20,961 nucleotides of DNA, taken from Candidatus Heimdallarchaeota archaeon B3_Heim. Lineage in GTDB: Archaea > Asgardarchaeota > Heimdallarchaeia > Hodarchaeales > Hodarchaeaceae. The notes below the pieces were generated by a model, which searched no databases, had not been told where the DNA came from, and worked only from the letters and a program-made list of their open reading frames with translations. Below, piece after piece: positions 1,035 to 19,035 of the stretch (the stretch's first letter is position 1; each line of letters opens with the position of its first letter). Position numbers and translations under genes: made by a program. The DNA lies in assembly GCA_003144275.1 (NCBI GenBank), contig NJBF01000050.1, positions 1-20,961 of the forward strand, written 5' to 3'.

Positions 1035-2228
1035 ATGAATTTTATCATTATTGGCAATGGGGTTGCAGGTATCACAGCAGCCCGATTATTGATTCAACAT
1101 GTACCTCCAGGGTCAAATGTACTACAATTTACTTCTGAACCATATGGCTACTATGCCCGTCCAAAATTACCTCAATTTCTTGGAGATAACAAACAAACCC
1201 CTGAAAGTATGATGATTTACGCCAAGGACTGGTACAGTAAATCAAATATCCAACTGCACACGAATGAGAAAATTCATACAATCAAGCGAAAGGAGAAAAA
1301 GGTAGTTTCAGACAAAGGTGAGTATGAGTATGACAAATTACTTCTTGCCCTTGGTGCAAGTTGTGCCTGTCCCCCTATCCCAGGACTTGAGTTAGAGCAC
1401 GCTTATACCCTCAGAACCTTAACTGATGCCATTGCTATCCGAGGTCAACTTGAAAAAAGTCACTCTGTTGCAATTATAGGCGGAGGATTACTCGGTATAG
1501 AAAATGCTATTGCATGTGCTAAACGTGGAATTAAAACTACTATTATTGAATTTTTTCCCCATTTATTACCCCGACAACTTGATCCTGAAGGGAGTGCAAT
1601 TTTTACTCAATTATTAACCAAATTCGGAGTAGAAACCATTACCAATGCTCAAGTTAAGGAAATATTAGGTACATCCAAGGTTGAGAGCGTTCAATTGAAA
1701 GATGGACGGATAATTAAAGCTGATCTGGTTATGACATGCACAGGAATTAAGCCTCGTGTTGAACTAGCCAGAAAAGCAAATTTAGATGTAAATCGGGGAG
1801 TAATCGTTAACGATTTTCTTGAAACATCTGATCCTTACATATTCGCAGCAGGGGACATTGCAGAACACAATGGACGAGTTTATGGAATTATTCCTCCAAC
1901 AACAGAACAAGGACGAGTAGTGGCTGAAAATATGGTCACATCGAGGTCTCGGGAATACCATGGATCTAAAATTTCTACAACATTGAAAGTCGCGGATCTG
2001 TTCGTATCATCTATCGGATATGATCCAAAACAGGAAGAATATCCTTCATTGAAATATGAAAACAAAGAATCAACCGAATATGTGAAATTTTTCCATGAGA
2101 ACGACAGACTAAAGGCCGTTATCCTACTAGGTACTAAAAAAGGTATCCCACACATAAGAAAGATGTTTGATGAACCATTATCTCATCATAGAGCGAAACT
2201 AGAAGAAATTTTCCCCGGAATAGCTTAA
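1035..2228 (+). CDS. NAD(P)/FAD-dependent pyridine nucleotide-disulfide oxidoreductase, NADH:rubredoxin oxidoreductase/NirB-N-like
   Basis: N-terminal FAD motif IIGNGVAG, NAD motif IIGGGLLGIE, second FAD motif TSDPYIFAAGD, and YARPKL. 397 aa, with GAGG upstream. Confidence 0.88.
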   Translation: MNFIIIGNGVAGITAARLLIQHVPPGSNVLQFTSEPYGYYARPKLPQFLGDNKQTPESMMIYAKDWYSKSNIQLHTNEKIHTIKRKEKKVVSDKGEYEYDKLLLALGASCACPPIPGLELEHAYTLRTLTDAIAIRGQLEKSHSVAIIGGGLLGIENAIACAKRGIKTTIIEFFPHLLPRQLDPEGSAIFTQLLTKFGVETITNAQVKEILGTSKVESVQLKDGRIIKADLVMTCTGIKPRVELARKANLDVNRGVIVNDFLETSDPYIFAAGDIAEHNGRVYGIIPPTTEQGRVVAENMVTSRSREYHGSKISTTLKVADLFVSSIGYDPKQEEYPSLKYENKESTEYVKFFHENDRLKAVILLGTKKGIPHIRKMFDEPLSHHRAKLEEIFPGIA

Positions 2229-2734: not shown

Positions 2735-5700
2735 TCAGTAATATTCTCCTCGAGTTCTGTTTACCCACTTAGCAGTTTCAATCACGAGTACAGGAATAAC
2801 AGCTGCCATTAGACAGATCGACCAATCTGCTAGAGAAAGACCAATTATATCCACATATAATCCAAATCCTGCTACTAGTTCCTGAAGGACTGGTATATAC
2901 ATCAAAGCAAGATGAATTGGGAGAATCGAGAAAGCAAGCAAGTACGTGATCCAATATGAATCTTCTCGAATTGTTTTAATGAGGGATTCGTCTATTCGCC
3001 GAACAGACAAAATCATCAAGGGAATAGCCAAATATAAGATGGTATGCATCAATGTGCGTGCTTTGGCATGATTCCAGCTAAGGGGACGTAAATTGTTTGG
3101 TTTTACTCCTGGATCATCAAAAAATACTGGAATGTAGAATTGTTGATTGGTTGCATTTACTTGGATAAAACCAAAGAATGCAGAGAAATAAACGATATAA
3201 ATTATACTGGCGAGGCTAACTGCTACAGCAAGAAGAGTTACTGCGAGTTTTCCGTTGAAAATTCCTGCTGAATCGATAGGGTCTCGATTCATAATGCCTC
3301 GTGGGATCTGATCCAATATCAATGCGAGAGGTGGTAAAGTATGGGCAATTCCAAAGATATATGCTCGCTGGAGGTGATCCATTAATTCAAACCCTGGGAT
3401 GAATCCTGATATAAATGAAGATCCTATATAAACCGCAGCTTCACTCAAATTAATCGCTATAAAGAAGAATATTATTACACGTATTCGCTGAAAGAGAGCA
3501 CGTCCCTCTCGAATTCCTGTTACTATTGAATTAAATGAATCATCTGCAATCACAAGATCTGCGGCCTGTTTGGATACTTCTGTTCCTGATATGCCCATTG
3601 CAATTCCCGCATCAGCCATACTTAATGCTAACGCATCATTAACCCCATCGCCAGTCATTGCTACTACGCGATTCTGATTTTGATATCTCTGTATAATTGT
3701 TTGCTTATCCTGTGGGGCTACTCTTGCAAAAACACGAGTATCATGAAAATCAGGATCATTCAGAAGTGTAGCCATTTTTCCTTCATGGGTTTGATGTTTT
3801 TGAGGTTGTAAAAGGCCAATACTATCTGCGATAGAGGAGGCAGTAATTGGTGAATCACCAGTAATCATAATAGGTGTAATTCCAGCGGCTAAAGTTTCTT
3901 GAACAGATTCATCTACCAGATCACGGGGAGGATCCAATACTTTTACAAAACCGAGATAACAAAGATCAGATTCAACAAAGTCTCTCTCCTTGTCATTTTT
4001 AAGGGGAAGTTCCTCAAGATCTCTATAAGTTAAAGATAACACCCTGTAACCTTGAGCTGCAGCTGCTTCAACTTCAGCAAGAATATTCTTTCTATCAGCA
4101 TCCGTTAGTTTCTTTTTATCATTTTCATACCCTATCTGCGAACAACGAGGAAGTAATACCTCTGTCGCTCCTTTACAAAATATCCTGGGTTTTTTATCTA
4201 TTTTATACATTTTACTCATACGCTTGAGTGACGAGTCAAAAGGAAATTCACGTATCAACTTATACTTTTTCAATAACCCCGATTCAGATAGTTTACTCTT
4301 GTTAAAAAGTGTCATAAGAGCCGATTCTGTAGGAGATCCAGTACCTGTGTATACCACTTGATTTCCTACTGTTTCTTCAGTAATCTTGGAATCATTATTG
4401 AACATACCTGAAATAATCAGCATTCCGAGTGATGAATCAAGTTCAACACCGATAGGTTCTTGAATCTGACCTTCTTTCTCCGTCACTCGAGATTGATCTT
4501 CTCTCTTAATTTTAGAAATGTATCCTTCTGGAGAATAACCTAAACCGCTTACATAGTAATGCTGATCAGAAGAGGCATTCCAGATACCTTTCACGGTCAT
4601 CTGACCTGCAGTAATAGTACCCGTTTTATCAGAACAAAGTATGGATATACGACCCAAACTCTCAATCGAAGCGAGATTTCGTATAATTACACGATGTTTG
4701 GCCATTGCTAATACTCCTGTAAGCAAGATTATTGTAGTAAGAAGGGGAATATTGATTGGTACAACGGACATTGCTTTAATTATAATATTTGAAATATCAA
4801 ATATGATGGTACCGATTAACGCTTTCAAGTCACCAGGCGGAATAATCCCTTTCTCTAGCTTATCAAGGATTATAGTTGCTTGATAAATTAGTAAAAGACT
4901 AAAAACAATCATCATCCCTCCTGCAAGGTAGTTTCCAATCGCATTTACCTTTTGGCGAATAGGAATGTCACCTGTGTTTAATTCAGCCAGCTCTAAGCTT
5001 ATTTTACCAAACTCAGTACGTCCGCCTGTATTAACAACTAGAAGTCTACTCGACCCCATAGTTGCAAAAGTACCATTGTAGACCATATTCTTCCTTTCAC
5101 CAATCGGTGTATCATTTTCAAAGGCTTTATCACCATCTTCGACTTTTGTTGCTGGAACACTTTCTCCTGTCAATGAGGATTCGTTCACACGGAAAGAACT
5201 GGAATTAATTATTCGTGCATCTGCAGGTACTTTATCTCCTTGTGCGAGAATTATAATATCTCCTGGAACTACCATTTCTGTTGTGATTTCAACTTCTGTT
5301 CCATCACGTATCACTCGTGCAGCTGGAGCAGACATTTTCTGTAGTGCTTCAATTTGTTTTTGTGCACGTTGCTGTTGTACAATAGCGATTAGGAAATTAA
5401 CACCAACTATGATCACCCATTGTATTGCTGTAAACCAGATGCTCGTATCTTTCGAATCAATAAATAAAAAATAAACCAATGCCAGTATTAGAATGAATGT
5501 AGTCATTAAAAGGTATATCACAATCAATGTATTCATTAGAGGAGCTAAGTAAACTTTCCAGAAGCTTTGCTTTGGTTCTGGTATTTTGTTTTCCCCATAA
5601 ACCTCTAGACGTCTGCTTGCTTCACCTGAACTCAGTCCTGTTTTGATATCAGTCTTTAAATCCGTTATTAATTCTTTTAATTCGTGAGCGTGAACAATGA

Positions 5701-5737
5701 TTTCTGGTAGTTGTTCTGTAACATCCTCTGATTCCAT
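2735..5737 (-). CDS. P-type ATPase with a P2-like scaffold and non-canonical membrane transport site (substrate unknown)
   Basis: LTGES (A domain), CSDKTGT phosphorylation site, FPFDSSLKRMS, KGATE, MITGD, FARVAPQDK, MTGDGVNDA, and about 10 TM segments. Start is placed at Met27 of the ORF track (5737) because GAAGGT precedes it. Confidence 0.93.
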   Translation of the reverse strand: MESEDVTEQLPEIIVHAHELKELITDLKTDIKTGLSSGEASRRLEVYGENKIPEPKQSFWKVYLAPLMNTLIVIYLLMTTFILILALVYFLFIDSKDTSIWFTAIQWVIIVGVNFLIAIVQQQRAQKQIEALQKMSAPAARVIRDGTEVEITTEMVVPGDIIILAQGDKVPADARIINSSSFRVNESSLTGESVPATKVEDGDKAFENDTPIGERKNMVYNGTFATMGSSRLLVVNTGGRTEFGKISLELAELNTGDIPIRQKVNAIGNYLAGGMMIVFSLLLIYQATIILDKLEKGIIPPGDLKALIGTIIFDISNIIIKAMSVVPINIPLLTTIILLTGVLAMAKHRVIIRNLASIESLGRISILCSDKTGTITAGQMTVKGIWNASSDQHYYVSGLGYSPEGYISKIKREDQSRVTEKEGQIQEPIGVELDSSLGMLIISGMFNNDSKITEETVGNQVVYTGTGSPTESALMTLFNKSKLSESGLLKKYKLIREFPFDSSLKRMSKMYKIDKKPRIFCKGATEVLLPRCSQIGYENDKKKLTDADRKNILAEVEAAAAQGYRVLSLTYRDLEELPLKNDKERDFVESDLCYLGFVKVLDPPRDLVDESVQETLAAGITPIMITGDSPITASSIADSIGLLQPQKHQTHEGKMATLLNDPDFHDTRVFARVAPQDKQTIIQRYQNQNRVVAMTGDGVNDALALSMADAGIAMGISGTEVSKQAADLVIADDSFNSIVTGIREGRALFQRIRVIIFFFIAINLSEAAVYIGSSFISGFIPGFELMDHLQRAYIFGIAHTLPPLALILDQIPRGIMNRDPIDSAGIFNGKLAVTLLAVAVSLASIIYIVYFSAFFGFIQVNATNQQFYIPVFFDDPGVKPNNLRPLSWNHAKARTLMHTILYLAIPLMILSVRRIDESLIKTIREDSYWITYLLAFSILPIHLALMYIPVLQELVAGFGLYVDIIGLSLADWSICLMAAVIPVLVIETAKWVNRTRGEYY

Positions 5738-5869
5738 AAAATGACCTTCTTTTCGAGTAAAACTTCGATTATTCTGTACAATAGGGATTAGGAGATAATC
5801 AATTAGTAATTCCAATATATGATAAAGAAATATAAATAATTTGAGCTGAACTTACAGAAATCTTACATC

Positions 5870-6592
5870 CTATATGTGAATTATAAGTGGACTCAGAGAG
5901 AGGAGAAATATTGCAGCGAAATAGGTACTCATGACTTTGATTTCTCTATATGAAAAATCATGATGAAATTCCCTTATCGCAATAATTGAATCCGAAAAAA
6001 CAAATAAGAGTCCACCAACCACTAAGACCATTAGACCAATTACTAGTCTTCCTAAAGTTGTCCAAAGTAACACAGTCGATGATAACATACCTGAAATGAA
6101 TATACAATAGATCAATACAGGTATTCTAAATTTTCCTAGTCCTTTGACAGAAGATTCTAAATAGCGGAGAAAAAGAAAAATATACACCACCATTACAACG
6201 GCTACAAATCCAGTTAATAATAAGGAGTCAGAAGTTATACCAATTTCAATCGCTTGACCTGTGAAAGTTACTAGAAGTAATATTTGAGCAACTAAGAAGA
6301 TGGGTAGTCCTGGAATTAGACCCTTCTCCATACCTAAATCTCCTAGCATGCAAAAAAATAGCCCCAAACTTAAAATTAGTGATAAATAGATAGAATCGTG
6401 TCCATTGTATAAAGTAAACAAGGTAGCTAATCCTGCTGGAAAAACTTTTATTATGGTACTATATTGGGTCAAGTTGTTTAAGAAATCAGAGTTAAACTTA
6501 ATTTCATTTGATTTTAAGCTTTTCACAACAATATAGAGAAGAGAAAAGAACCAAAAACAGACAAAGTAAATAATTTCTATCATTTCATACAC
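5870..6592 (-). CDS. YhhN / TMEM86 lysoplasmalogenase-family membrane protein
   Basis: Multi-pass hydrophobic protein with family motifs IKVFP, LGDLGM, LIYCIFISGM, GGLLFVFSDSIIA and STYFAA. The start is GTG at 6592 or ATG at 6583. Confidence 0.78.
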   Translation of the reverse strand: MYEMIEIIYFVCFWFFSLLYIVVKSLKSNEIKFNSDFLNNLTQYSTIIKVFPAGLATLFTLYNGHDSIYLSLILSLGLFFCMLGDLGMEKGLIPGLPIFLVAQILLLVTFTGQAIEIGITSDSLLLTGFVAVVMVVYIFLFLRYLESSVKGLGKFRIPVLIYCIFISGMLSSTVLLWTTLGRLVIGLMVLVVGGLLFVFSDSIIAIREFHHDFSYREIKVMSTYFAAIFLLSLSPLIIHI

Positions 6593-6703: not shown

Positions 6704-9076
6704 TTATAACTGAATTCTTCCGTTCTTAAACAAACTATCAATCTTCTGATCTTCGAGGGTTCGTGGTTTGCTCTTTTTCACAGGTTTAGTAGATGAACCT
6801 CGTCTTTTGGGGGATCTCTTGAACCTATCCTTTGCTTTACTCAATTCTTTCTTCAAAGAAAGAGAAATTCTTTTTTTAACAAGGTCTATATCTTTCACTC
6901 GAGGTTTCACGATATCTCCAACTTTTAATCCTGCCTCTCTAGGATGACGGATAAAACTATCAGAAATTTCACTTATGTGAATAAGTCCATTTGTTTTTAC
7001 CCCAAGATCAACAAAACAGCCAAAATCAGTTACGTTGGTGACAGTTCCTTCAATGATACTACCTACCTCTAAATCTTCTATCGTTAGAACAGATGATTTC
7101 AGGATTGGCTTATCAAAATCATCTCTTGGATCACGATAGGGATTTTGTAAGATTTCAATGATATCAGTAATAGTGACCAAAAAATCTTCTTGATGTAATT
7201 GTTTAGCTGCAAAAGTTGGATTTAGCAATTTTAACTGTCTTTGCAACCGTACCCGACGATCCTTGGTAGATAAATCCTCTTTAGTAAATTTAGCTAATTT
7301 TATAATACTTTCTGCTAATTCATATGATTCAGGATGAATAGGAGAATTATCAAACGGATCAGGGGCGTCAGGTATCCTCAAAAATCCAACACTCTGCTCA
7401 AAAGTTCGAGGTCCGATTCCAGGAACACCTTTTAAATCTTCGCGATAGACAAAAGCTCCATTCTCCTTCCGGTAGTTAATTATATTCTTTGCTACTGACT
7501 TAGTAATTCCACTCACATATTTCAGTAATACTTCAGAAGCTGTATTAACATCAGCACCAACTAAGTTTACAGTATCAACCACTACATCCTTTAATGCCTT
7601 AGAAAGACCAAAAAGATCATGTTGATATTGTCCAACCCCAATGGAACGTGGATCAATTTTTACCAGCTCAGCTAGAGGATCCTGTAATCTTCTTGCAATA
7701 GAAACAGCGCCTCTTATACTAACATCTACATCTGGAAATTCTTCACGAGCTATGTCACTTGCACTGTATACTGAAGCTCCTGCTTCATTAACAATCACGT
7801 ATTTCAAATCAGTTGCTTTAGCTATATATTTACTAACGAATTCTTCTGTTTCACGGGAAGCTGTGCCATTTCCAATTGCTATAATTGAGATCTTGTGTTT
7901 CTCAATTATTCCTTTCAACACCTGAGCTGACTTCTCAAATTGCTCATGGGGTTTTGTTGGATAAACTGTGCCATTTGCTAATACGTTTCCCATCTCGTCA
8001 ATTGCAGCATATTTGCATCCAGTTCTAAATGCTGGATCAATTCCTAAAATGCGTGATTGGATGGGAGGACTGAGTAATAAGTGTTTAAGGTTCTCCCCAA
8101 ATACTTGTATTGAATGCTGTTGAGCCTTTTCAAATTGTATTCGTTTTAATTCCCTTTGTAAACTTGGGCCAAGTAAGCGTTTCCAACTATCACGTATAGC
8201 AACATCAAGTTGTTCACTTATCTCCGTATTGATGTTTATAGAGGAGGAAATGTCTTTTGTAATTTTTTCAATAATATTTTCATCAGGAAATGCTACCTTG
8301 AATGATAAAATACCTTCTCGATCTCCCCGTAGCATTGCAAGCAAACGATGAGGGGGAACACTTAATGCGGGTTCTTCAAACGCAAAGTATTGTTCATACT
8401 TTTTCCCTTGGATAACTTTTTGAGAATTTTCTTGTTCTTCCTCATCCATTTCGTATAATAATGACTTTTTTGTTGTAAAAAGAGCTTTGCTGAAGTAGCT
8501 ATGGCGTACTAAGTCTCGCACTCCTTTAGAAATTGATAAATCTTCAGCAATAATATGTCTAGCACCCTCTAAAGCTTCTTCAGGAGTTCCAACACCAAGT
8601 TCAGAGTCAACATACCCATCTGCAATTTCAAGTAACGATTTTCCCTCAGGATAGTCATCTTTACCAAATAAAATATTGGCCAAAGGTTCCAATCCTTTTT
8701 CACGGGCAACCATACCTTTAGTTTTCTTTTTTCGCTTGTATGGGAGATAAATTTCCTTTAACTCAGCTAAACTAGTGGCATTTGCAATACTAGAAGCTAA
8801 TTCTTCGGTCATTTGTCCTTGTGCTTCTATCACTTTGTGAATTCGTTTCCTTTCACGATGAAGCTGGGTTAATTCTTGATAGTTTTCTTCAATCGCTCTA
8901 ATCTGAGTTTCATCTAAGGATTGGGTTTTTTCTTTTCGGTAGCGAGCAATAAAAGGGACAGTATTCCCATCATTGAGTAACTCAAGAGTTGAAGAAACCT
9001 GTTTCTGCGTTAACTGTAGCGAAGAAGAAATCATTTGTAAAATTTCGACAGTAGAATCGTCCGTTGTGGTTGCCAT
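6704..9076 (-). CDS. tex: Tex (YhgF) family RNA-binding transcription accessory protein
   Basis: N-terminal GNTVPFIARYRKEKT, YLPYKRKKKTKG, YqgF-like GIDPAFRTGCK, AIGNGTASRETE, VNEAGASVYSAS, IGVGQYQHD, HhH repeats and a C-terminal S1 domain (GTVTNVTDFGCFVDLG...GLIHISE). Confidence 0.95.
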   Translation of the reverse strand: MATTTDDSTVEILQMISSSLQLTQKQVSSTLELLNDGNTVPFIARYRKEKTQSLDETQIRAIEENYQELTQLHRERKRIHKVIEAQGQMTEELASSIANATSLAELKEIYLPYKRKKKTKGMVAREKGLEPLANILFGKDDYPEGKSLLEIADGYVDSELGVGTPEEALEGARHIIAEDLSISKGVRDLVRHSYFSKALFTTKKSLLYEMDEEEQENSQKVIQGKKYEQYFAFEEPALSVPPHRLLAMLRGDREGILSFKVAFPDENIIEKITKDISSSININTEISEQLDVAIRDSWKRLLGPSLQRELKRIQFEKAQQHSIQVFGENLKHLLLSPPIQSRILGIDPAFRTGCKYAAIDEMGNVLANGTVYPTKPHEQFEKSAQVLKGIIEKHKISIIAIGNGTASRETEEFVSKYIAKATDLKYVIVNEAGASVYSASDIAREEFPDVDVSIRGAVSIARRLQDPLAELVKIDPRSIGVGQYQHDLFGLSKALKDVVVDTVNLVGADVNTASEVLLKYVSGITKSVAKNIINYRKENGAFVYREDLKGVPGIGPRTFEQSVGFLRIPDAPDPFDNSPIHPESYELAESIIKLAKFTKEDLSTKDRRVRLQRQLKLLNPTFAAKQLHQEDFLVTITDIIEILQNPYRDPRDDFDKPILKSSVLTIEDLEVGSIIEGTVTNVTDFGCFVDLGVKTNGLIHISEISDSFIRHPREAGLKVGDIVKPRVKDIDLVKKRISLSLKKELSKAKDRFKRSPKRRGSSTKPVKKSKPRTLEDQKIDSLFKNGRIQL

Positions 9077-9171: not shown

Positions 9172-9196
9172 AATTTGTAAGTTCAGGATAGAATTG

Positions 9197-9832
9197 ATGA
9201 TAGCTGGAATAATTCTTGCTGCAGGTGAATCAAGGAGATTTCCTACGCAAAATAAGCTCTTATATGAGTTTGTTCCCGGAATGAGCATACTAGAATCTGT
9301 CTTACTTGCATTTCTTCAATCAGAAATTAACAAAATTGTGATTGTTACAGGACATGACTCACTCAATATTATTGAAAAGATCAACATACTCTCATCCAGA
9401 CATCAAACTCCTGTCAGCACAGTATTTAATGATAATTATCAATCAGGAGGAATGTCTTCTTCTATTATTACAGGATTAAAAGCCGTTATTAACGCTGATG
9501 CCGTATTGATTACACCTGCGGACATTCCTCTTATTCCTACATCAGTCATAAATGCAATGATATCTTTTTGTTTGCATGACTCTCATGATATTATAATTCC
9601 TACCTTTAATCAGCGAAAAGGACATCCTATCCTACTCAAATCAACTCTATTTCCTGAAATATTATTGATTTCCGAGAAACACAGAGGATTAAAAGAGATT
9701 ACTACTAAACACCGAAAAGAAATCGTTTATCTGCCCATGCAAGAGTCTGGAATACTGAACGACTTAGATACTATCAAAGATTTGAAAAAATTTTCTGAGA
9801 CACCGAACCCCATTGGGAAAAACTCTTTATAA
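9197..9832 (+). CDS. mocA: Molybdenum cofactor cytidylyltransferase (MocA/YgfJ-like nucleotidyltransferase)
   Basis: GIILAAGESRRF, NKLL, GMSSSI, ADIP, RKGHP, DLDT. It heads a xanthine-dehydrogenase-family operon, and prokaryotic enzymes of this family typically use MCD. An alternative TTG start is at 9194. Confidence 0.85.
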   Translation: MIAGIILAAGESRRFPTQNKLLYEFVPGMSILESVLLAFLQSEINKIVIVTGHDSLNIIEKINILSSRHQTPVSTVFNDNYQSGGMSSSIITGLKAVINADAVLITPADIPLIPTSVINAMISFCLHDSHDIIIPTFNQRKGHPILLKSTLFPEILLISEKHRGLKEITTKHRKEIVYLPMQESGILNDLDTIKDLKKFSETPNPIGKNSL

Positions 9833-10123: not shown

Positions 10124-10960
10124 ATGAAAAATGTAACAGAATATAAGTACCCCTCAAACGTCTCACAGGCTTTATCTCTATTTTCAGAGCAAAAACACAG
10201 CACTTATATCGCGGGTGGAACCCATCTTGCCTCAGGGAATAGAAATAATACGATTCGACTTATTGATATTACTCGGCTGGGATTGAATGAAATAAAAGAT
10301 GGGGATGAGAATATCGAAGTTGGTGCTACAACAACAATAACAGACATGTACAATTCACCTATTGTTAAGAAAGTGGGGAAGGGTGTATTAAAGAAAGCAT
10401 GTCGATTAATAGGCGATACCCCCTTGAGGAATGCAATAACACTTGGAGGGAATATTGCTCGTTTGTATACATGGGCTGGGCTACCTGTAATGTTACTCAC
10501 TTTAGATGCAGAGATTGAGATTATAAACCCGCTAGAAAAAACGTACTCAGTTGAAGCTGTTGAGCATATTACCAACGGTGGTATAAGGGATGGAGATATT
10601 ATCTTAAATGTTAAATTTCCACAAAAGAATTCCTGGTTTCATGCATATGAGAAATTTGCATTGACAACGGTAGATTATACATGGTTGACTATGGCTTTTG
10701 CTGCTGAAGTGAAAGAAGGGCAAATAACTGATGCCAGACTGGCAGTTTCCCGAATTACGAAAGTGACACGGATAACACCTGTAGAGAAAGCGCTTATAGG
10801 ACAACTAGTGTCACAATTAGATTTGGAAAAGCTTAAATCACTTTTAAAGTCCTCTGTTGATATTGTACAAGATTATCGAGTAAGTAAAGAATATCGAAGT
10901 CAACTCTTAGGCGTAATATTCAAACGAATGTTACAAAAATTGCAGGAGGAGACACAATGA
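10124..10960 (+). CDS. Molybdenum hydroxylase FAD-binding subunit (CoxM/XdhB/YgfM-like)
   Basis: IAGGTHL, IEVGATTT and LRNAITLGGNIA motifs. The stop overlaps the next start (ATGA). Confidence 0.9.
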   Translation: MKNVTEYKYPSNVSQALSLFSEQKHSTYIAGGTHLASGNRNNTIRLIDITRLGLNEIKDGDENIEVGATTTITDMYNSPIVKKVGKGVLKKACRLIGDTPLRNAITLGGNIARLYTWAGLPVMLLTLDAEIEIINPLEKTYSVEAVEHITNGGIRDGDIILNVKFPQKNSWFHAYEKFALTTVDYTWLTMAFAAEVKEGQITDARLAVSRITKVTRITPVEKALIGQLVSQLDLEKLKSLLKSSVDIVQDYRVSKEYRSQLLGVIFKRMLQKLQEETQ

Positions 10961-11430
10961 GCCAAATCTTACATGTTATTATCAACGGTACGAGTAAAGA
11001 GATACCTATAGAGCCTGATGAACTATTACTAGATGTTCTTAGACGTGAAGGGTATAAAGGAGTAAAGAGAGGATGTAAAGAGGGAACGTGTGGAACTTGT
11101 ACGATACTTCTGAATGATAAAGCAGTCAAGTCTTGTATACTGCTTGCTGCTCAAGCGAAAAATTGTTCAATTATTACGATTGAGGGCATTGGAACACGTG
11201 ATAATCCCCATCCAATTCAGCAAGCGTTTGTTGATGAAGGAGTAGTGCAGTGTGGGTTTTGCATTCCTGGAATGATTTTATCTGCGAAAAATTTACTTGA
11301 TAATAATCCTAACCCTACTAAAGATGAAGTGAAAATGGCTTTAGATGGAAATTTATGTCGTTGTACAGGCTATTCAGGCCAAATTAAAGCCGTATTAGCT
11401 GCTGCTCCTGTTATGCGAGGTGAAAAATAA
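10957..11430 (+). CDS. Molybdenum hydroxylase 2x[2Fe-2S] subunit (CoxS-like)
   Basis: GCKEGTCGTC...KSC and QCGFC...NLCRCTGY cysteine motifs. GGAGG ribosome-binding site upstream. Confidence 0.95.
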   Translation: MSQILHVIINGTSKEIPIEPDELLLDVLRREGYKGVKRGCKEGTCGTCTILLNDKAVKSCILLAAQAKNCSIITIEGIGTRDNPHPIQQAFVDEGVVQCGFCIPGMILSAKNLLDNNPNPTKDEVKMALDGNLCRCTGYSGQIKAVLAAAPVMRGEK

Positions 11431-13766
11431 TGACAGAGAAAATTTACGAAGGTCGAGTGGTTACCAAAAGTGTTCCCAAGAAAGATGCCCTGAGTCTTGC
11501 TATGGGTAAACCTATGTATACTGACGATAAGGACTTCCAAAATCTCGTTCATGTAAAAATGCTCTATAGTCCCCACGCTCATGCAATAATCCAAGATCTC
11601 GATACAAGCGAAGCAGAGAAGCTACCAGGAGTATTAGGAGTTCTGACATATAAAAATAGCTCCCAAGTGCTTCATACAAGTGCTGGACAAGGATTTCCCG
11701 AACCCAGTCCATATGACACAAGATTATTTAATAAGAAAGTCAAGTATGTCGGCGATCGAGTAGCTGCCGTTGCTGCAGAGACACTAAAAAATGCCGAAGC
11801 AGCTTTAAAGCTAATTCAGGTTAAATATGAAATTCTTGAACCCATTTTTGATCATGATCAGGCTCTGGGGAACGATATCGTCATTCACGATGAAGGGGAT
11901 TCAAAGTATATTATACCAGTTTTTTATGATCCCAAGAAGAATCATGCCTCTCATATCGACGCTGAAGTAGGTGATCTCGAAAAAGGGTTTACGGAAGCGG
12001 ACTTTATTATTGAGAAAACAGTCAGGAACCATTATGGACAGCATTGTCCGCTAGAACCCCATATTAGTATCGCGTATATCGATAATTATGATCGATTGGT
12101 AGTCCGAACTGCTACTCAAGTTCCATTTCATGCACGTAGGATTTTAGCTCAAATATTGGAAATTCCATTATCTCAGATACGAGTAATTAAACCTAGAATC
12201 GGAGGAGGATTTGGTACAAAACAAGAAATCTTAACAGAACCGATTGTTGCGTCTTTTGCTTGGTTATTAAAGCGGCCAGTGAAATTTGAATTTACACGTA
12301 AGGAGGAATTCATTTCAGCACGTACTCGTCATCCCATGACAACTTGGTTCAAAGCAGGGGTAAAGAAAGATGGAACAATTACTGCTATGGATATGAAAGT
12401 CACAAGTAACACTGGAGCATTTGGATCTCATGCTCTAACGGTACTAAGTAATACTGGTAGTAAAACCTTACCTCTCTATCATTGTCAGAATATACGATTT
12501 GTGGGGGATACTGTGTATACTAATCTTCCTGTTGGAGGAGCTTACAGAGGATATGGTGGTACACAAGCATCACTAGCGATGGAAATCGTCATGGATGATT
12601 TAGCTACTGAAATTGGGATGGATCCTGCTAATTTTCGATTGATGAATCATATAAAAGCTGGTGAATCATCTCCTATCTTTAAAGCACTAGGTGAAGGAAT
12701 AGAAGGTGTAGCGCAGACTGTTGATTCGGTTGGTTTGACAGAATGTATCAACCAAGGAGCAGAAGCAATCGATTGGTGGAACCGGGAAAAAATTAAAGAG
12801 AAAAACAGCACAGATACAGTTAAACGCGGTTTTGGACTCGTATGTATTATGCAAGGTTCTTCCATTCCTGATATTGATATGGCTGCAGGCTATTGCAAAA
12901 TGAATGAGGACGGCACATTTAATTTACTTGTTGGAGCAACTGATATTGGGACTGGATCAGATACAATTCTTGCTCAGATATTTGCTGAAGGATTAAGCTT
13001 AGATGCCTCGGATGTTATTGTTCTTAGTTCGGACACAGATACAACACCATTCGATAAAGGTGCATATGCCAGTTCAACAACTTATCTTACTGGCCAAGCA
13101 TGTGTTAATTTAGCTATCAAAGTCAAGGACCAATTATTTGATTATACTGCGATGGTCTTGAACGTCCCAAAAGATGAACTAAAAATTGAAGCGAAAGCTG
13201 TTATCCATCAGAAGTCAGGCAAACAGATGACATTTGCAGAAATTGGTACTAAGTCGTATTATTCAGACTACCAAACTCAGATAGGAGCAGTGGCTTCAGA
13301 GCTATCTAAAAAATCTCCTCCACCGTTCACTGCCCATTATGCAGAAATAGATGTAGACATCGAAACAGGTCGAGTGACAGTACTAAAATATGTCGCTGCG
13401 GTCGATTGTGGAACTCCTATCAATCCTAAATTAGTTGTAGGACAAGTTGAAGGGGCCTTAGTTAACGGCTTATGCTATGCTTTGTCAGAACAGTACATCT
13501 TCAATGATAAGGGGAAAATGATGAACCCATCATTCGGTAATTATAAAATCATGACGACTATTGATCTTCCAGAGATAGAAACAATTATAGTACCCACATT
13601 TGAACCCAGTGGTCCTTGGGGAGCTAAATCCATTGCCGAAGTGAATATTTCCGGCCCAATGCCAGTTTTAAGTAACGCTATCTTCGATGCAACAGGTGTT
13701 CGTATAACTGAGCCTCCCTATACACCAGATCGGGTATTAAAAGCCATCCAAAATCATAATAAATGA
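11430..13766 (+). CDS. Xanthine-dehydrogenase-family molybdopterin-binding subunit, XdhD (YgfN)-like
   Basis: ATQVP, IGGGFGTKQE, GAYRGYG, DIGTGSDT, FDKGAYASS, DCGTPINP and GAKSIAE (catalytic Glu kept). PEPSPYD, ALGEG and IMQGSSIPDID recall E. coli XdhD. TAATG coupling with the upstream gene, preceded by GAGGTGA. Confidence 0.93.
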   Translation: MTEKIYEGRVVTKSVPKKDALSLAMGKPMYTDDKDFQNLVHVKMLYSPHAHAIIQDLDTSEAEKLPGVLGVLTYKNSSQVLHTSAGQGFPEPSPYDTRLFNKKVKYVGDRVAAVAAETLKNAEAALKLIQVKYEILEPIFDHDQALGNDIVIHDEGDSKYIIPVFYDPKKNHASHIDAEVGDLEKGFTEADFIIEKTVRNHYGQHCPLEPHISIAYIDNYDRLVVRTATQVPFHARRILAQILEIPLSQIRVIKPRIGGGFGTKQEILTEPIVASFAWLLKRPVKFEFTRKEEFISARTRHPMTTWFKAGVKKDGTITAMDMKVTSNTGAFGSHALTVLSNTGSKTLPLYHCQNIRFVGDTVYTNLPVGGAYRGYGGTQASLAMEIVMDDLATEIGMDPANFRLMNHIKAGESSPIFKALGEGIEGVAQTVDSVGLTECINQGAEAIDWWNREKIKEKNSTDTVKRGFGLVCIMQGSSIPDIDMAAGYCKMNEDGTFNLLVGATDIGTGSDTILAQIFAEGLSLDASDVIVLSSDTDTTPFDKGAYASSTTYLTGQACVNLAIKVKDQLFDYTAMVLNVPKDELKIEAKAVIHQKSGKQMTFAEIGTKSYYSDYQTQIGAVASELSKKSPPPFTAHYAEIDVDIETGRVTVLKYVAAVDCGTPINPKLVVGQVEGALVNGLCYALSEQYIFNDKGKMMNPSFGNYKIMTTIDLPEIETIIVPTFEPSGPWGAKSIAEVNISGPMPVLSNAIFDATGVRITEPPYTPDRVLKAIQNHNK

Positions 13767-13876: not shown

Positions 13877-15712
13877 GTGACTGAGATGTGGTTCGAGTTC
13901 TCAGTCTATGGATTAATGATGGCTGCAACATCCGTTCTAGCTATCTTTCTTTTCGCTTACCCCATCCTGTCCCGTCCAAAGACTAGATTAAGGACATATT
14001 TTTTACTCTTAGTACTTTCAGCGTTTTTCTGGTCTTTTGGGTACTTTCTGGAAATTTCCAGTGTTGAATTAGAATTAATGAAATTCTTTAATCTGGTCCA
14101 ATATATAGGCATTGTGACCTTACCAGTCTTTTTCTTTTTTCTCATCCTCTATTTTACTAGAGAGTATGGATTTATTGAACGACCATTGCTTCTTCTCTTA
14201 TTTTTCCCTTCCATTATTCACTATTTCTTAGTATTAACCGATGATTTCACGCATTTATTTTATGAGTCTATCACACTTAACACCGGCGAACCATTCATCC
14301 GGATGGAATTAGTCTATGGAGCTGCATTTTATAGTAATATGATTTATTCTTACCTTTTAGTTTTTGGAGCATTTTTTCTCCTTTTTCGTAAATTTCAAGA
14401 AACTCCGCCCAATGAAACGATTATTAGGACTCAAATTATCATTTTTACCTTCGGAGCTACCTTTCCAATTCTAGGAAATATAATCCGAGTAACAAAAATT
14501 ATACCCCCACTTGACTTCCTAGATTTAACACCAGTAGCTTTCATGATTGCATTTGTTCTTTTTACTTATGCTATATTCGAGGTAGGGTTTCTAGATCTTG
14601 TACCAATTGCCCGAAATCATGTATTCAGAGATATCCATGATATGTTGATAGTTTTGGATTCTCATTTAAATATCATTGATTATAATCGTTCAGCTCATCA
14701 AATTATCTTTGCTAATAGACCTGAGAGTGATATTCGGAATAAGAATTTCAAATCAATTATCTTTGAACAGACGAAACGTAATGTTCATATCTCAAACTCC
14801 AACCATTTATATCAGGGTTTATCGACTCTCATTGAAGGAAAAACTGGTTTATATACTCAGGATACCGAAATTTTATTTTCAGGGAAACAGGTTGGAAGAG
14901 ACTATTATAATATTACTGCAACTCCTCTTTATCAAGCAAATAGAATTGTTGGCGCTATCGTCTTCATACGAGACATCTCTGCTCAACGAGAAGCTGATGT
15001 AGTGATACAACAAAAGACTCAAATGCAAGAAGTAATTTTACAATTATTATCCCATGATTTGCGAAATCACTTGAACGTGTTGAAAGGATATTCGGAACTA
15101 GCTGTCTCTTCAGATTCGCTTGAGGATACTAAAGAAAGTCTTGAAGCTATTGAGGTAAAGAGCTCTGCGATATTGGATACCATTAATGAAGTCACTAATT
15201 ACTTGAAAATCGATAAATTACTAGCTGGGCAACGTCAGCAGCTGAATCTAAATCAAGTAGTTGTAGATGCAATTGAAGTAATGGGCCCTGAATGTGCTTT
15301 CAAAAAAGTAACTATTGACTTCGGTCCTAGTTCGCAGCCTGCATATGTATGGGGAGATGCTGTTGTCTTAAAGTCTGTAACCTTAAATTTACTCCAAAAT
15401 GCCATTAAATTTTCTCCTCCGAATGCCATAATAAATGTACAGATCAAGGATCTACAAGAATCAGCTCAATGGCAGGTCAGTATCGCTGACAACGGTCCAG
15501 GAATAAATAAGGGTCTACAAGAAGAAATTTTCAAACCCTTTGTGTCTTTCGGAACTGAAAAAGGGACAGGTTTGGGACTGACTATTGCAAAGACTGTAAT
15601 TGAGAGTTTGGCTGGGAAAATTTGGGTCAGGGATAATGACCCACAAGGAGCTATCTTTAATTTTGTTCTCCCTAAAATAGCCGAGGATTCAGAAGAATTA
15701 TTAGAAAATTGA
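13877..15712 (+). CDS. Sensor histidine kinase: N-terminal 7TM (HisKA_7TM-like), PAS-like, HisKA, HATPase_c
   Basis: About seven hydrophobic helices in the first ~240 aa. H-box LSHDLRN, N-box NLLQNAIKFS, G1 DNGPGI, F-box IFKPF and G2 GTGLGL. GTG start. Confidence 0.9.
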   Translation: MTEMWFEFSVYGLMMAATSVLAIFLFAYPILSRPKTRLRTYFLLLVLSAFFWSFGYFLEISSVELELMKFFNLVQYIGIVTLPVFFFFLILYFTREYGFIERPLLLLLFFPSIIHYFLVLTDDFTHLFYESITLNTGEPFIRMELVYGAAFYSNMIYSYLLVFGAFFLLFRKFQETPPNETIIRTQIIIFTFGATFPILGNIIRVTKIIPPLDFLDLTPVAFMIAFVLFTYAIFEVGFLDLVPIARNHVFRDIHDMLIVLDSHLNIIDYNRSAHQIIFANRPESDIRNKNFKSIIFEQTKRNVHISNSNHLYQGLSTLIEGKTGLYTQDTEILFSGKQVGRDYYNITATPLYQANRIVGAIVFIRDISAQREADVVIQQKTQMQEVILQLLSHDLRNHLNVLKGYSELAVSSDSLEDTKESLEAIEVKSSAILDTINEVTNYLKIDKLLAGQRQQLNLNQVVVDAIEVMGPECAFKKVTIDFGPSSQPAYVWGDAVVLKSVTLNLLQNAIKFSPPNAIINVQIKDLQESAQWQVSIADNGPGINKGLQEEIFKPFVSFGTEKGTGLGLTIAKTVIESLAGKIWVRDNDPQGAIFNFVLPKIAEDSEELLEN

Positions 15713-15717
15713 TCCAA

Positions 15718-17496
15718 TTATCGTTGTAAGATTGCTTTTCCTGTCTGTACGTTCCAGAGAGTTGTGTATAGTTTATTTGATTTAACCAGTTCCTCATGGG
15801 TCCCCTCTTCGATGATCTGCCCATGTTCAATAACATAAATTCGATCGGCATTTCGGACGGTACTGAGTCGATGTGCAATCAAGATAGTTGTTCTATCAAG
15901 AATAATCTTCTCTAATGATCTTTGAATAGCGGCTTCCGTCTCATTATCGACTGAGGAAGTTGCTTCATCAAGTACTAGAATAGGTGGATCCTTAAGTATA
16001 GCACGGGCAATAGAGATTCTTTGTCTTTGCCCTCCACTTAGTTTTTGACCTCTTTCACCAACAAGAGTATCATATCCATACGGAAGATTTGTAATAAACT
16101 CATGAACTTCGGCAATCTTTGCTGCTTCTACTATCCTTTCCATAGAAGCGTCCTGTCTTCCATAAATAATGTTTTCTCTTACAGTACCATCGATCAGATA
16201 TGTATCCTGTGAAACCAGACCTATTCCTTTTCGTAAATCCTGAAGCTTTAAATCTCTCAGATCATTATCATCAAGAGTGATTTTTCCATTGGTAGGATCA
16301 TATAATCGGAGCAATAGCTTGACTATTGTAGTTTTCCCTGATCCTGTACTTCCCACAAATGCTACAGTTTGGCCAGGATTAATATTCACACTTAAATCTG
16401 AAAAAACAACCTCACGGCCCTTGTATGAAAAGTTCACATTCTCGAAGCATAATTTCCCTTGAATACTGTCTAAAGGTAGATCAGTAGAACCAGATTGAAT
16501 TTTACTCTCTGTTTCGAAAAGACCCATGATTCTAGTAACAGAAGCCATGGCGCGTTGATATTGGTCAAAAGTTTCACCCATTCTAGTCAAAGGCCATAAA
16601 AGACGTTGAGTTAAGAAAATCATAGCACTATATGCGGCTACCTCCAGAGTACCATCAATAGTCTGAAAACCTCCGAAAATAAGCATAGCTGTAAATCCTA
16701 TGACGATAATCATCCGTATGAGTGGAGAAAACGCTGAACTAAACTTAATCGCATCTTCATTACTCATACGATATGCATTCGAGGATTTAGATATTCGATT
16801 GGCTTCAAAAGATTCGGTAGTGTAACTCTTAATTGTAGCAATCCCTGTTAAATTATTTGAGAGCATTCCGTTCAATATTCCAACTTTTTCTCGAACCTGC
16901 CTGTATTTGGGTTCAAGGCGAGCTTGGAAAAGAACAGCAAAGGTAAGAATAAACGGCATAGGCACTAGTGCCATCCACGCAATTCGAGGGGAGAGTAGGA
17001 AAAACGCGAAGGAAATTGCTATCGCAGTGACAGTTACCTGAATCAAATCATTGGCACTTATGTCCAAAAATCTTTCTAATTGGTTAATATCATCGTTCAA
17101 AATAGACATTAATCCACCAGTTTGACGATCCTCAAAATATTCCAATTCAAGATCTTGGAGATGTTTGTAGGCATCCATCCTCAGTTCATGTTCAACTGTT
17201 TGAGCTAAATTCCTCCAATAAATCTTGTAGATATACTCGAAAAGTGATTCAAAACCCCAAATAATGAATGTTAACAATCCAAGGACTATGAATTGAACCG
17301 AAGGCTCAGTTATACCAAAAAGAGCGAAGATAGAATTTTCTCTTCTTACCGCAATATCAACTGCTGCTGATATCAAAAAAGGCGGAGCTAAATCAAATAA
17401 TTTGTTAAGAATTGAAAAAATTGTAGCTAAAATTACCGTTGTACGATGTGGGCGCATATACTGGAGTAATTGGAAGAAGGGGCCGGTAGTATTCAT
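15718..17496 (-). CDS. ABCB/MsbA-like ABC exporter half-transporter (TMD-NBD fusion)
   Basis: Six-TM N-terminal domain, Walker A GSTGSGKT, Q-loop VSQD, signature LSGGQRQR, Walker B ILVLDEATSSVD and H-loop IAHRLST. Confidence 0.95.
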   Translation of the reverse strand: MNTTGPFFQLLQYMRPHRTTVILATIFSILNKLFDLAPPFLISAAVDIAVRRENSIFALFGITEPSVQFIVLGLLTFIIWGFESLFEYIYKIYWRNLAQTVEHELRMDAYKHLQDLELEYFEDRQTGGLMSILNDDINQLERFLDISANDLIQVTVTAIAISFAFFLLSPRIAWMALVPMPFILTFAVLFQARLEPKYRQVREKVGILNGMLSNNLTGIATIKSYTTESFEANRISKSSNAYRMSNEDAIKFSSAFSPLIRMIIVIGFTAMLIFGGFQTIDGTLEVAAYSAMIFLTQRLLWPLTRMGETFDQYQRAMASVTRIMGLFETESKIQSGSTDLPLDSIQGKLCFENVNFSYKGREVVFSDLSVNINPGQTVAFVGSTGSGKTTIVKLLLRLYDPTNGKITLDDNDLRDLKLQDLRKGIGLVSQDTYLIDGTVRENIIYGRQDASMERIVEAAKIAEVHEFITNLPYGYDTLVGERGQKLSGGQRQRISIARAILKDPPILVLDEATSSVDNETEAAIQRSLEKIILDRTTILIAHRLSTVRNADRIYVIEHGQIIEEGTHEELVKSNKLYTTLWNVQTGKAILQR

Positions 17497-17541: not shown

Positions 17542-19035
17542 TTAAATGACCCCTAGAAAGAATGCAAGGAATGAAAGGTAAATTCCACCCATTATTAGTA
17601 AGATAACTGAGATAGGGATGAAACAAATAATGAAAAACTTGAAATTTAATGGCCGTCCTCTCTTAGCGAGTGAAGATACTGCCAAGATTCCCGCAGCTGA
17701 CCCAAAAGGTGTCCATCCACCTCCCAGCGCCCCAGAAAAGATTAGAATGAACCACAAGTAAAGTGGATGGGATTCAATATGAATTAAATTCATGTCCTTA
17801 ACAACAGGAAGAAGTGCTGCCGTGACAGGAATATTATCTAGAACACCACTAAAAATTGCAGTAATAAAAAGGATCAAAATTCCTGAGAGGAGTAAATCCT
17901 CTCCACTAATTGCTTTAAGCCATGTGGCAAGGTCAATTAAGATGTTTGTCTCCTCTAAAATTCCGACAAGAATGAAAAGTCCGCCAAAAAAGAGTAATGG
18001 TCCCCAATTCAGTCGTGATAGCAAAGTATTTTCATCGGTTCCTGTTAACACCATTGCTAATATTCCACCAATAATTGCTACGACTCCTATAGGTATTGTT
18101 AATAACTGAGCAAGGGCAAATCCGATGATCGTTACACCCATTGACAGAGCAGCTAAATAAAATTGCTTCTTACTCTCTATTACCCCCCATGGGTCTAATG
18201 ATAAAATTATTTCTGTGTCAATACCATTAGATTTTTCCCTAAGGGGAATTTTCTCTGGTGGAAAGAATTTACGTAAATAAATAATACAGATCGGAATCGA
18301 TATAATAACAAAAGGTAAAGAAACGAAAAGAAAATCAATAAAACCTATTCCCGCCGTTGTACCTACTAGGATTGCAGGCAACGAAGAAATTAATGTTGCC
18401 ATGCCAGCAAGGTCTGTGGCAAGGACAGCTGCAAGCAAAAAGGGGGTTGGATCATAATCAAGGGCTTGACAGGCCGTAAAAATCATAGAACTGATGAGAA
18501 TCATGGCAGTTACATTAGCCAGTACAGTAGACAATGTGAGAGTGAGTAAAAAAGTCATAACAAAAAGGGGAAAAACTTCCCCTTTCGAAACCTGCATCAT
18601 TCGTATTATTAACCAATCAAAGAGTCCTGTTTCTGCGGTTGCCTCTACCAAGATTGACATTCCAAAAACAACTGCAAGTACCTCCCATTCCATGTAATGG
18701 TCAACTACATGACTCCACTGGAAACTTTCCAGCAAAAACGCAGCCAAAAGAAGTGAAATGGAACAAGCAATCAGAATAATCGTAATCTGTAAATGATGGA
18801 ATCTAGCAACTAAAAGGAAAGTTATAATGAAAATAAGCGAGAATAATAATATATTTCCTATTCGAGAGTTGAAAGAGTAAAGGATCAAGAAAAAGGTGAA
18901 AAATCCCAATAGGATAATAATCAGAAAAATCTCAAATACTCGGTGACTTCTCAACCATTTACGATTTATCCTCTGCGTGAAAAATGATTGTTTTCTCTCT
19001 TCTTCTGAAAGGGTATCGCTTAAATTCTTAGTCAT
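17542..19035 (-). CDS. ArsB/NhaD/P-protein (IT superfamily) membrane permease
   Basis: About 12-13 TM. MEWEVL..FGMSIL..AETGLFDW, LNWGPLLFFGGLFILVGILEET, SGVLDNIP and GALGGGWTPFGS match the family repeat layout. Confidence 0.82.
   Translation of the reverse strand: MTKNLSDTLSEEERKQSFFTQRINRKWLRSHRVFEIFLIIILLGFFTFFLILYSFNSRIGNILLFSLIFIITFLLVARFHHLQITIILIACSISLLLAAFLLESFQWSHVVDHYMEWEVLAVVFGMSILVEATAETGLFDWLIIRMMQVSKGEVFPLFVMTFLLTLTLSTVLANVTAMILISSMIFTACQALDYDPTPFLLAAVLATDLAGMATLISSLPAILVGTTAGIGFIDFLFVSLPFVIISIPICIIYLRKFFPPEKIPLREKSNGIDTEIILSLDPWGVIESKKQFYLAALSMGVTIIGFALAQLLTIPIGVVAIIGGILAMVLTGTDENTLLSRLNWGPLLFFGGLFILVGILEETNILIDLATWLKAISGEDLLLSGILILFITAIFSGVLDNIPVTAALLPVVKDMNLIHIESHPLYLWFILIFSGALGGGWTPFGSAAGILAVSSLAKRGRPLNFKFFIICFIPISVILLIMGGIYLSFLAFFLGVI

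Follow-up and report, generated by a model that had tools for sequence, protein, structure and literature searches.

We analyzed a 20,961-nucleotide stretch of the Candidatus Heimdallarchaeota archaeon B3_Heim genome (contig NJBF01000050.1, positions 1 to 20,961; hereafter the window), in which a gene on the minus strand encodes a P-type ATPase of the group that we call the M6-His clade. The open minus-strand reading frame spans 2735..5815, and its likely start is the ATG at 5737, which follows a putative Shine-Dalgarno-like box. Residue numbers below are those of the window protein unless the Ca2+ pump SERCA is named, and M1 to M10 denote transmembrane helices. The homolog set comprises the 120 best database matches (43-87% identity), which together with the window protein make 121 sequences. 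The features of the gene are as follows.

2735..5737, minus strand: P-type ATPase gene (Asgard M6-His clade), 1000 amino acids; stop codon at 2735-2737.
About 90 nt upstream of the ATPase gene, minus strand: AT-rich, possibly TATA-like stretch, by sequence reading.
5744..5749, minus strand: putative Shine-Dalgarno-like box GAAGGT, 7-12 nt upstream of the ATG at 5737, by sequence reading.
5360..5377, minus strand: cytoplasmic end of M2, QQQRAQ by re-translation, where canonical pumps read QExxAE.
5159..5170, minus strand: TGES dephosphorylation motif of the A domain, by re-translation; present in 118/118 homologs.
4775..4777, minus strand: Lys321 in M4, an evolutionarily derived residue six positions ahead of the M4 Pro.
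4745..4759, minus strand: PINIP in M4; I328 stands where SERCA has E309, and N329 where it has G310.
4616..4630, minus strand: DKTGT phosphorylation site; present in 121/121 homologs.
4160-4174, minus strand: KGATE, by re-translation.
3854-3862, minus strand: TGD, by re-translation.
3635..3652, minus strand: GDGVND hinge motif, followed by Ala-Leu where canonical pumps have Ala-Pro.
3440..3451, minus strand: NLSE in M5; N763 and E766 are the SERCA N768 and E771, retained site-I ligands.
3332..3361, minus strand: YIFGIAHTLP in M6; F795, A798 and H799 stand at SERCA N796, T799 and D800; H799 codon at 3341-3343.
3023..3025, minus strand: Ile905 in M8, at the SERCA E908 position.

The initial annotation had described an intact set of catalytic motifs (TGES, DKTGT, KGATE, TGD and GDGVND) and, from an alignment to SERCA made by eye, a rebuilt transport site in M4, M5, M6 and M8 together with the QQQRAQ end of M2. 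Re-translation agrees with it at every motif coordinate, and the alignment was reproduced both by HMMER and by MAFFT against 101 pumps with PEGLP in M4. Relative to SERCA, E309 is replaced by Ile, G310 by Asn, N796 by Phe, T799 by Ala, D800 by His and E908 by Ile. HMMER alignment with the Listeria Ca-ATPase of solved structure paired PINIP with PEALS, NLSE with NLGA and IFGIAHTLP with INLVNDSLP. The conserved Asn adjoining the M4 Ile, N329, had been absent from the earlier description.

The window protein contains the Pfam domains Cation_ATPase_N, E1-E2_ATPase, Cation_ATPase (the P2-type N domain, PF13246), Hydrolase and Cation_ATPase_C, and neither an N-terminal nor a C-terminal metal-binding domain was found in it. 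The P-type superfamily model TIGR01494 was the only NCBIfam model whose cut-off was passed (258.7 bits, cut-off 62.3); the protein reached the cut-off of no NCBIfam equivalog. The top score among these was that of IID (TIGR01523; 417 bits, cut-off 645), followed by the Ca-pump equivalogs PMR1 (TIGR01522; 406, cut-off 798), SERCA (TIGR01116; 386, cut-off 703) and PMCA (TIGR01517; 366, cut-off 507), and by IIC (334, cut-off 946), IIIA (TIGR01647; 304, cut-off 615.5), IIIB (295, cut-off 611), P5 (255, cut-off 618) and P4 (TIGR01652; 88, cut-off 431). An AlphaFold (AF2) model built from 68 homologs has ten transmembrane helices and a mean predicted local distance difference test (pLDDT) score of 84. 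Its best Foldseek matches are SPCA1, SERCA and the Na,K- and H,K-ATPases (TM-scores 0.64-0.77), and the top 50 matches are all P2A or P2C pumps. Judged from sequence and predicted fold, the gene encodes a working P-type ATPase with the ten-helix, large-N-domain P2 build.

The protein lacks the signatures of the P2A/P2B, P3A, P2D and P4 subfamilies. The P2A-like Ca2+-ATPases (LMCA1, SERCA, SPCA1/PMR1) share with it the five Pfam domains, the ten helices, the catalytic motifs and the M5 Asn and Glu; LMCA1 is its best sequence match in the PDB (1e-104), and SPCA1 and SERCA are its best fold matches (TM-scores 0.66-0.77). However, the M4 Glu, M6 Asn and M6 Asp of these pumps (the P2A/P2B signature, with PEGL in M4 and Asn...Asp in M6) are replaced by I328, F795 and H799, their M2 Glu by Gln and their M1 Gln by Pro. 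The P3A signature, an M5 Arg with LND in M6 as in genuine Asgard P3A pumps, is absent, as is that of P2D (IPxSL, ENIAQ and TSGLPD). The DGET and GDGAND of P4 are likewise missing, TGES and GDGVND standing in their place.

The replacements are a property of a family. Across the homolog set I328 is present in 121/121 sequences and N329 in 104/121 (Ser in 14, Thr in 2); in M5, N763 is kept in 117/120 and E766 in 120/120; in M6, F795 is kept in 116/120 and H799 in 120/120. QQxRAQ is also retained across homologs, M5 and M6 are rich in aromatic residues (Y770, Y793, F795), and 14/121 sequences carry PISIP in M4. Where the source is named, the homologs come from Hodarchaeales, Heimdall-, Thor-, Odin- and Promethearchaeota, and one is labeled Bathyarchaeia. 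An exhaustive HMMER search over 1.84 billion cluster representatives showed the signature in about 40 sequences, each representing a 50%-identity cluster, among them members of 35-38% identity with P[FVW]N[FL]P in M4; under about 430 bits the matches switch abruptly to pumps with PEGLP, N..E and NLVTDGLP. In the family representatives the M6 residue is His in 100% of cases, whereas it is Asp in 93% of P2A-like pumps. At M2, position 122 is Gln in 87% of the family and Glu in 94% of P2A-like pumps, and position 126 is Gln in 53% and Glu in 82%, respectively. The equivalents of the SERCA site-I ligands are kept in the same representatives (N768 in 92%, E771 in 100%, E908 in 95%). Among the positions at which the family can be told apart from P2A-like pumps are P66 in M1 (Gln in 92% of P2A-like pumps), Q122, N329 (Gly in 93%) and H799, together with several cytoplasmic positions, including L703 just after GDGVND. 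We define the M6-His clade by P-[IFVW]-N-[IFL]-P in M4, N..E in M5, His in M6 and a position within the clade in the maximum-likelihood (ML) tree; the window protein shows all four.

In an ML tree of 71 sequences (LG+G4, P1B outgroup), the His-bearing sequences formed one clade with a Shimodaira-Hasegawa-like approximate likelihood ratio (SH-aLRT) support of 100, beside P2A-like sequences (98), with the Asgard P3A pumps and P1B outside. A second tree (36 sequences, LG+C20) recovered the clade at 100/100 among P2A-like sequences and placed P3A outside at just 64/89. The approximately unbiased test left a grouping of the clade with P3A unrejected (p 0.85), and the constrained tree was better than the one from the quick free search. 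Taken together, the trees and the test support a robust clade whose sister group may be P2A-like or P3A. The metagenomic cluster representative P0143 (JGI) nests in the clade as sister to P0072/P0100 and lacks the signature: it has PVSIP in M4, Phe in place of the M6 His and Gln in place of the M8 Glu, a second and independent remodeling of the site.

The ratio of nonsynonymous to synonymous substitution rates (dN/dS) against the ~86%-identical ortholog at locus L144 is 0.08 by NG86 and 0.03 by YN00, values of strongly purifying selection; comparisons with 49-70% identical homologs were unusable because dS is saturated. The initial annotation had attributed the coordinated replacements to selection instead of decay, had proposed a phylogeny as a check and had named substitutions private to this genome as the sign of decay. 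The family-wide conservation, the dN/dS values and the coherent clade all speak for selection; the substitutions are held in the 121-sequence set and in the ~40 cluster representatives.

The family profile, a hidden Markov model (HMM), scores members at 740 bits or more and canonical pumps at 706 or less. Counted at 780 bits or more, at least 94 of the 151 sampled Asgard genomes carry the family, including six of the seven in the genus of the window, and the reading frame of the pump is open in six genomes of that genus. The family is often present in two to five copies per genome. Head-to-tail tandem pairs in which each copy exceeds 1000 bits with the family HMM are frequent in Asgard family f13 (L013 2646-5603 and 6001-8973; G040:C32, G147:C12, G135:C172 and others). 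Genomes of family f26 hold up to five copies, and two copies there carry a single in-frame TAA each (G089:C34:2826-5669 and G094:C233:24751-27603); these may be pseudogenes or assembly errors. A scan of contigs with the family alignment was swamped by generic PEGLP pumps matching through DKTGT and MTGDGVND (1/80 loci with PINIP) and has no bearing on breadth. Because one member is labeled Korarchaeota, restriction of the clade to Asgard archaea is likely but not proven. The two sequences with other labels in NCBI, P0127 (Korarchaeota) and P0118 (Bathyarchaeia), could mean that the clade reaches TACK archaea or that bins are mislabeled.

Searches of a library of papers found no description of the clade. 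In line with the initial annotation, the subfamily is uncharacterized; the databases label its members only as cation- or Ca2+-transporting ATPases, and a census of Asgard transporters lists just 'orthologs of a putative Ca2+ ATPase' (PMC7997004). By its sequence relationships the M6-His clade is an old, mostly Asgard-archaeal, uncharacterized branch of P2-like pumps. The genome of the window (3.95 Mb in 103 contigs) also contains two canonical P2A-like pumps (PEGLP/NAGE/NLVTDGLP and PEGLA/NFDE/NLLTDGLP), so that the M6-His pump adds a function of its own and is no defective Ca pump, and two CPC-type P1B pumps. Genuine P3A H+-ATPases (TIGR01647 >1000 bits; IPVALP, M5 Arg, M6 LND) occur in 26 of the 151 Asgard genomes, for example at loci L018-L023 (G041, G058, G034, G109, G062, G083); two carriers belong to the genus of the window, and its own genome has none. 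Searches of the 151 genomes made without a positive control found no P4 and no P2D protein above cut-off.

Hydrophobic residues at the E309 and N796 positions throughout the family abolish Ca site II. At the cytoplasmic end of M2 the acidic residues have been neutralized, and in M1 Pro stands where a Gln is otherwise conserved. In the alignment a single site-I-like pocket is kept, comprising N329 (M4), N763 and E766 (M5), H799 (M6) and, in most members, E905 (M8). Given hydrophobic site-II positions and retained site-I ligands, the family looks like a single-site pump that uses site I and in which a His has replaced the bridging Asp.

Within the family the window protein belongs to a Hodarchaeales subclade, a derived tip that a long branch (0.31) leads to. 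The M8 Glu is present in every aligned homolog of 53% identity or less to the window protein, and Ile stands at position 905 in all aligned homologs of at least 64% identity (Leu in two). Position 321 is Thr in 78/121 homologs, and Lys is confined to those at least 64% identical, nearly all of them at least 68%; in turn, nearly every homolog at or above 68% carries the Lys. Read from this alignment, the order of change is E905 to Ile first and T321 to Lys second, and the M8 Glu is lost just in the Hodarchaeales subclade. The ionizable residues within the helices of the window protein are K321, E766, H799 and H898 only, and no buried acidic residue besides E766 was found in it. The earlier description of a nearly charge-free site therefore holds for the Hodarchaeales subclade and fails for the family, most members of which keep the M8 Glu. 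The mid-helix Lys and the missing M8 ligand, noted at the same time, are likewise features of the subclade of the window protein and not of the family, the Lys being a late addition. This distinction between family and subclade, in both M8 Glu loss and Lys gain, is new here and is drawn from the aligned sequences.

Few pumps are understood as well as the P-type ATPases. The substrate of a P-type ATPase can usually be read from M4, M5 and M6, and the M6-His clade does not fit this code. To our knowledge, no characterized subfamily has an invariant Glu(M5)/His(M6) pair. The reading that we favor, although we would put it somewhat short of an even chance, is by analogy a single-site small-cation pump, most likely for H+, with built-in counter-charges. 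One small cation per cycle would be carried on the E766 carboxylate (with E905 in most members), H799 (with K321 in the Hodarchaeales subclade) would act as a built-in counter-charge, and the counter-charges would let the enzyme dephosphorylate without a counter-ion. Retention of the M5 and M8 Glu family-wide is as expected for a cation site. Built-in charges have precedents in Asp684/Arg655 of the P3A proton pumps and Lys791 of the gastric H,K-pump.

Several known systems resemble parts of this arrangement. P3A H+-ATPases (AHA2, Pma1 and their Asgard and methanogen relatives) also follow the M4 Pro with a hydrophobic residue (PIAMP or IPVALP, compared with PINIP), a trait common to the M6-His family and the Asgard P3A pumps (IPVALP), and they too combine one buried carboxylate with a built-in positive partner; however, their carboxylate lies on M6 (LND) and their Arg on M5, whereas the window protein has its carboxylate on M5 and its His on M6, and they are proteins of ~820 amino acids on a long separate branch. 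In P1B-4 (CoaT-type) pumps a conserved M6 His has been proposed as an internal counter-ion (PMC10654040), but these pumps, with eight helices and SPC in M4, belong to an unrelated part of the superfamily; the likeness is a functional analogy only. ENA/P2D pumps, whose model TIGR01523 scores highest, move Na+ or K+ without an M4 Glu or a D800 equivalent, with IPASL in M4 and TSGLPD in M6 (PMC10779151), and differ in having ENIAQ in M5, Thr-Ser in M6 and an essential Asp in M7. Their example also makes too strong the initial statement that P2 metal pumps need the M4 Glu and the M6 Asp. The P3A, gastric-pump and P1B-4 precedents would make H+ the likeliest substrate, ahead of Na+ or K+; that H+ or another monovalent cation is the substrate we hold, by the same analogies, to be close to evenly balanced but on the doubtful side. 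Four points weigh against it. Clustering of neighbors across 47 loci found no ion-naming partner that different Asgard families have in common; with 304 bits, the P3A model falls below the P2 models (334-417); P3A pumps and the M6-His family occur together in 20 of the 26 P3A genomes, a co-occurrence without the complementarity that would suggest the same job; and a transition metal, too, could be bound well by the set of His, Glu and Asn.

The genes adjoining the pump bear on some of the alternatives. Upstream of it lie the following.

5870..6592, minus strand: gene for a YhhN-family membrane protein (Pfam PF07947, 4e-25), 132 nt upstream of the ATPase gene on the same strand.
6704-9076, minus strand: Tex gene, upstream of YhhN in the order Tex-YhhN-ATPase.

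YhhN is a lysoplasmalogenase-family membrane protein found in 67 of the 151 Asgard genomes. The order Tex-YhhN-ATPase recurs at L144 (~87% identical), L145 (68%) and L012 (65%), and with the window these are every locus of the I905 type, that is, with Ile905 in the pump, that has YhhN nearby; at L011 an ABC module lies between the YhhN and pump genes. The linkage coincides with loss of the M8 Glu. YhhN was not found within 8 kb of any of ~40 loci of the E905 type, the closest cases being 10-18 kb away, and one genome in the genus of the window has the pump and no YhhN. Since the adjacency is seen just in the I905 subclade and a congener has the pump alone, we regard it as the synteny of one lineage. 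YhhN was considered as a family-wide functional partner and rejected, there being no linkage outside the I905 subclade. Sequence reading also suggests that the 132-nt spacer has its own TATA-like and Shine-Dalgarno-like signals.

It is possible, though doubtful, that the protein pumps a transition metal (Zn2+, Mn2+, Fe2+, Ni2+ or Co2+) as an exporter or a high-affinity importer, through a site made of His799, Glu766, Asn329 and Asn763, with Glu905 in most members. His with one or two Glu and two Asn is a typical ligand set for divalent transition metals, the acidic Ca-type entry residues at the end of M2 are gone, a gene for a DtxR/MntR-type repressor (Fe_dep_repr_C) lies 2-6 kb away in three subclade loci, and ZnuABC lies 2.5-4 kb away in one Heimdall-type family. 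The neighboring metal genes are, however, limited to single taxonomic families and are not operonic, the protein lacks a terminal metal-binding domain, and the genome already has its two CPC-type P1B metal pumps; the loss of one carboxylate and the gain of a Lys near the site in the subclade further disfavor a divalent cation. A Ca2+ or Mg2+ pump working through the retained site-I ligands, as the databases would have it, is distinctly unlikely. Public annotations do name homologs 'Ca2+-transporting ATPase', Asgard orthologs of a putative Ca2+-ATPase have been reported (PMC7997004), N763, E766 and the family-wide E905 are SERCA site-I ligands, and a Na_Ca_ex gene stands beside a tandem pair, directly after it, at one locus (L013). 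Yet at D800, the bridge between the two Ca sites, 100% of members have His, and a hydrophobic residue replaces the gating Glu309. Known single-site Ca pumps use site II and not site I, as the LMCA1 alignment also indicates. The protein reaches no Ca-pump equivalog cut-off, retains one buried carboxylate only and comes from a genome that keeps two canonical Ca-type pumps.

The initial annotation had suggested a lipid headgroup, anion or neutral organic solute as substrate. We consider a pump for a lipid headgroup, lysolipid or other neutral or organic solute, in the subclade perhaps working together with YhhN, quite unlikely. Ile follows the M4 Pro as in the PISL of P4 flippases, some homologs approach it further with PISIP, the aromatic residues of M5 and M6 would suit such a substrate, and the Tex-YhhN-ATPase loci belong to the subclade that lost the M8 Glu. 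Against this, the M5 Glu is buried and invariant, 95% of representatives retain the M8 Glu, the YhhN linkage is that of one lineage, and the spacer appears to carry signals of its own. The family differs from P4 pumps in having TGES and GDGVND, a second M4 Pro and the buried M5 Glu; the P4 score of 88 bits against a cut-off of 431 bears out the earlier view that this is not a true P4. The same annotation had seen relevance to the origin of P4-like transport, which we do not sustain: the P2 models score 334-417 bits, the fold is that of SPCA, SERCA, Na,K- and H,K-pumps, in the trees the clade falls among or next to P2A-like and P3A sequences, and the M5 and M8 Glu are kept family-wide. The clade thus has no bearing on flippase origin, and from its sequence the M6-His pump is probably neither a Ca2+ pump nor a flippase. 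Rather improbable, too, is an unrecognized P-type subfamily with a substrate class new for P2-like pumps, which in the Hodarchaeales subclade might be a lysolipid, an ether-lipid headgroup or an organic cation, or else a family that would import a scarce transition metal via a His-centered site. Finally, the loss of a further ligand (E905 to Ile) on a long branch could suggest a decaying or non-transporting relic, such as a sensing or regulatory ATPase; this is extremely improbable given the low dN/dS, the invariance of the catalytic motifs and remaining site residues, and the frame open in six genomes of the genus.

Naming the substrate of the M6-His pump would correct a systematic mis-annotation as Ca2+ pumps, extend by one case what is known of the rules for ion selection and built-in counter-ions, and supply a missing piece of membrane energetics in the archaea most closely related to eukaryotes. 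The stepwise loss of Glu and then gain of Lys in the subclade offers a natural experiment on pump stoichiometry, recalling the gastric H,K-pump and the brine-shrimp Na,K-pump.

Other syntenies around the pump are lineage-specific: panB, subtilase and a major facilitator superfamily (MFS) gene in one family, and ZnuABC, at 2.5-4 kb, in another. An apparent 'ZnuA' cluster of ten loci proved to be chaining via generic ABC ATPases, true ZnuABC being confined to the loci of one family. Downstream of the pump, the window contains genes for a desulfoferrodoxin and a rubredoxin-reductase-like flavoprotein (544-930 and 1035-2228, plus strand). At L144 (8508-12296) the same redox block is followed by an M28 peptidase and a DtxR/MntR-type repressor, and L011 and L012 likewise have this repressor close to the pump. 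Elsewhere in the window a MobA-like nucleotidyltransferase gene (9194-9832, plus strand) precedes genes for a three-subunit molybdopterin hydroxylase (10124-13766, plus strand) of the xanthine/CO-dehydrogenase type, with FAD, 2Fe-2S and MoCo subunits. The gene at 13877-15712 (plus strand) encodes a histidine kinase that begins with a 7TM domain (HisKA_7TM and PAS), and at L012 (1109-5056) two paralogs of this kinase adjoin YhhN and the pump. A fused ABC exporter (ABC_membrane and ABC_tran; 15718-17496, minus strand) stands beside a CitMHS/ArsB-type anion permease (17542-19035, minus strand).

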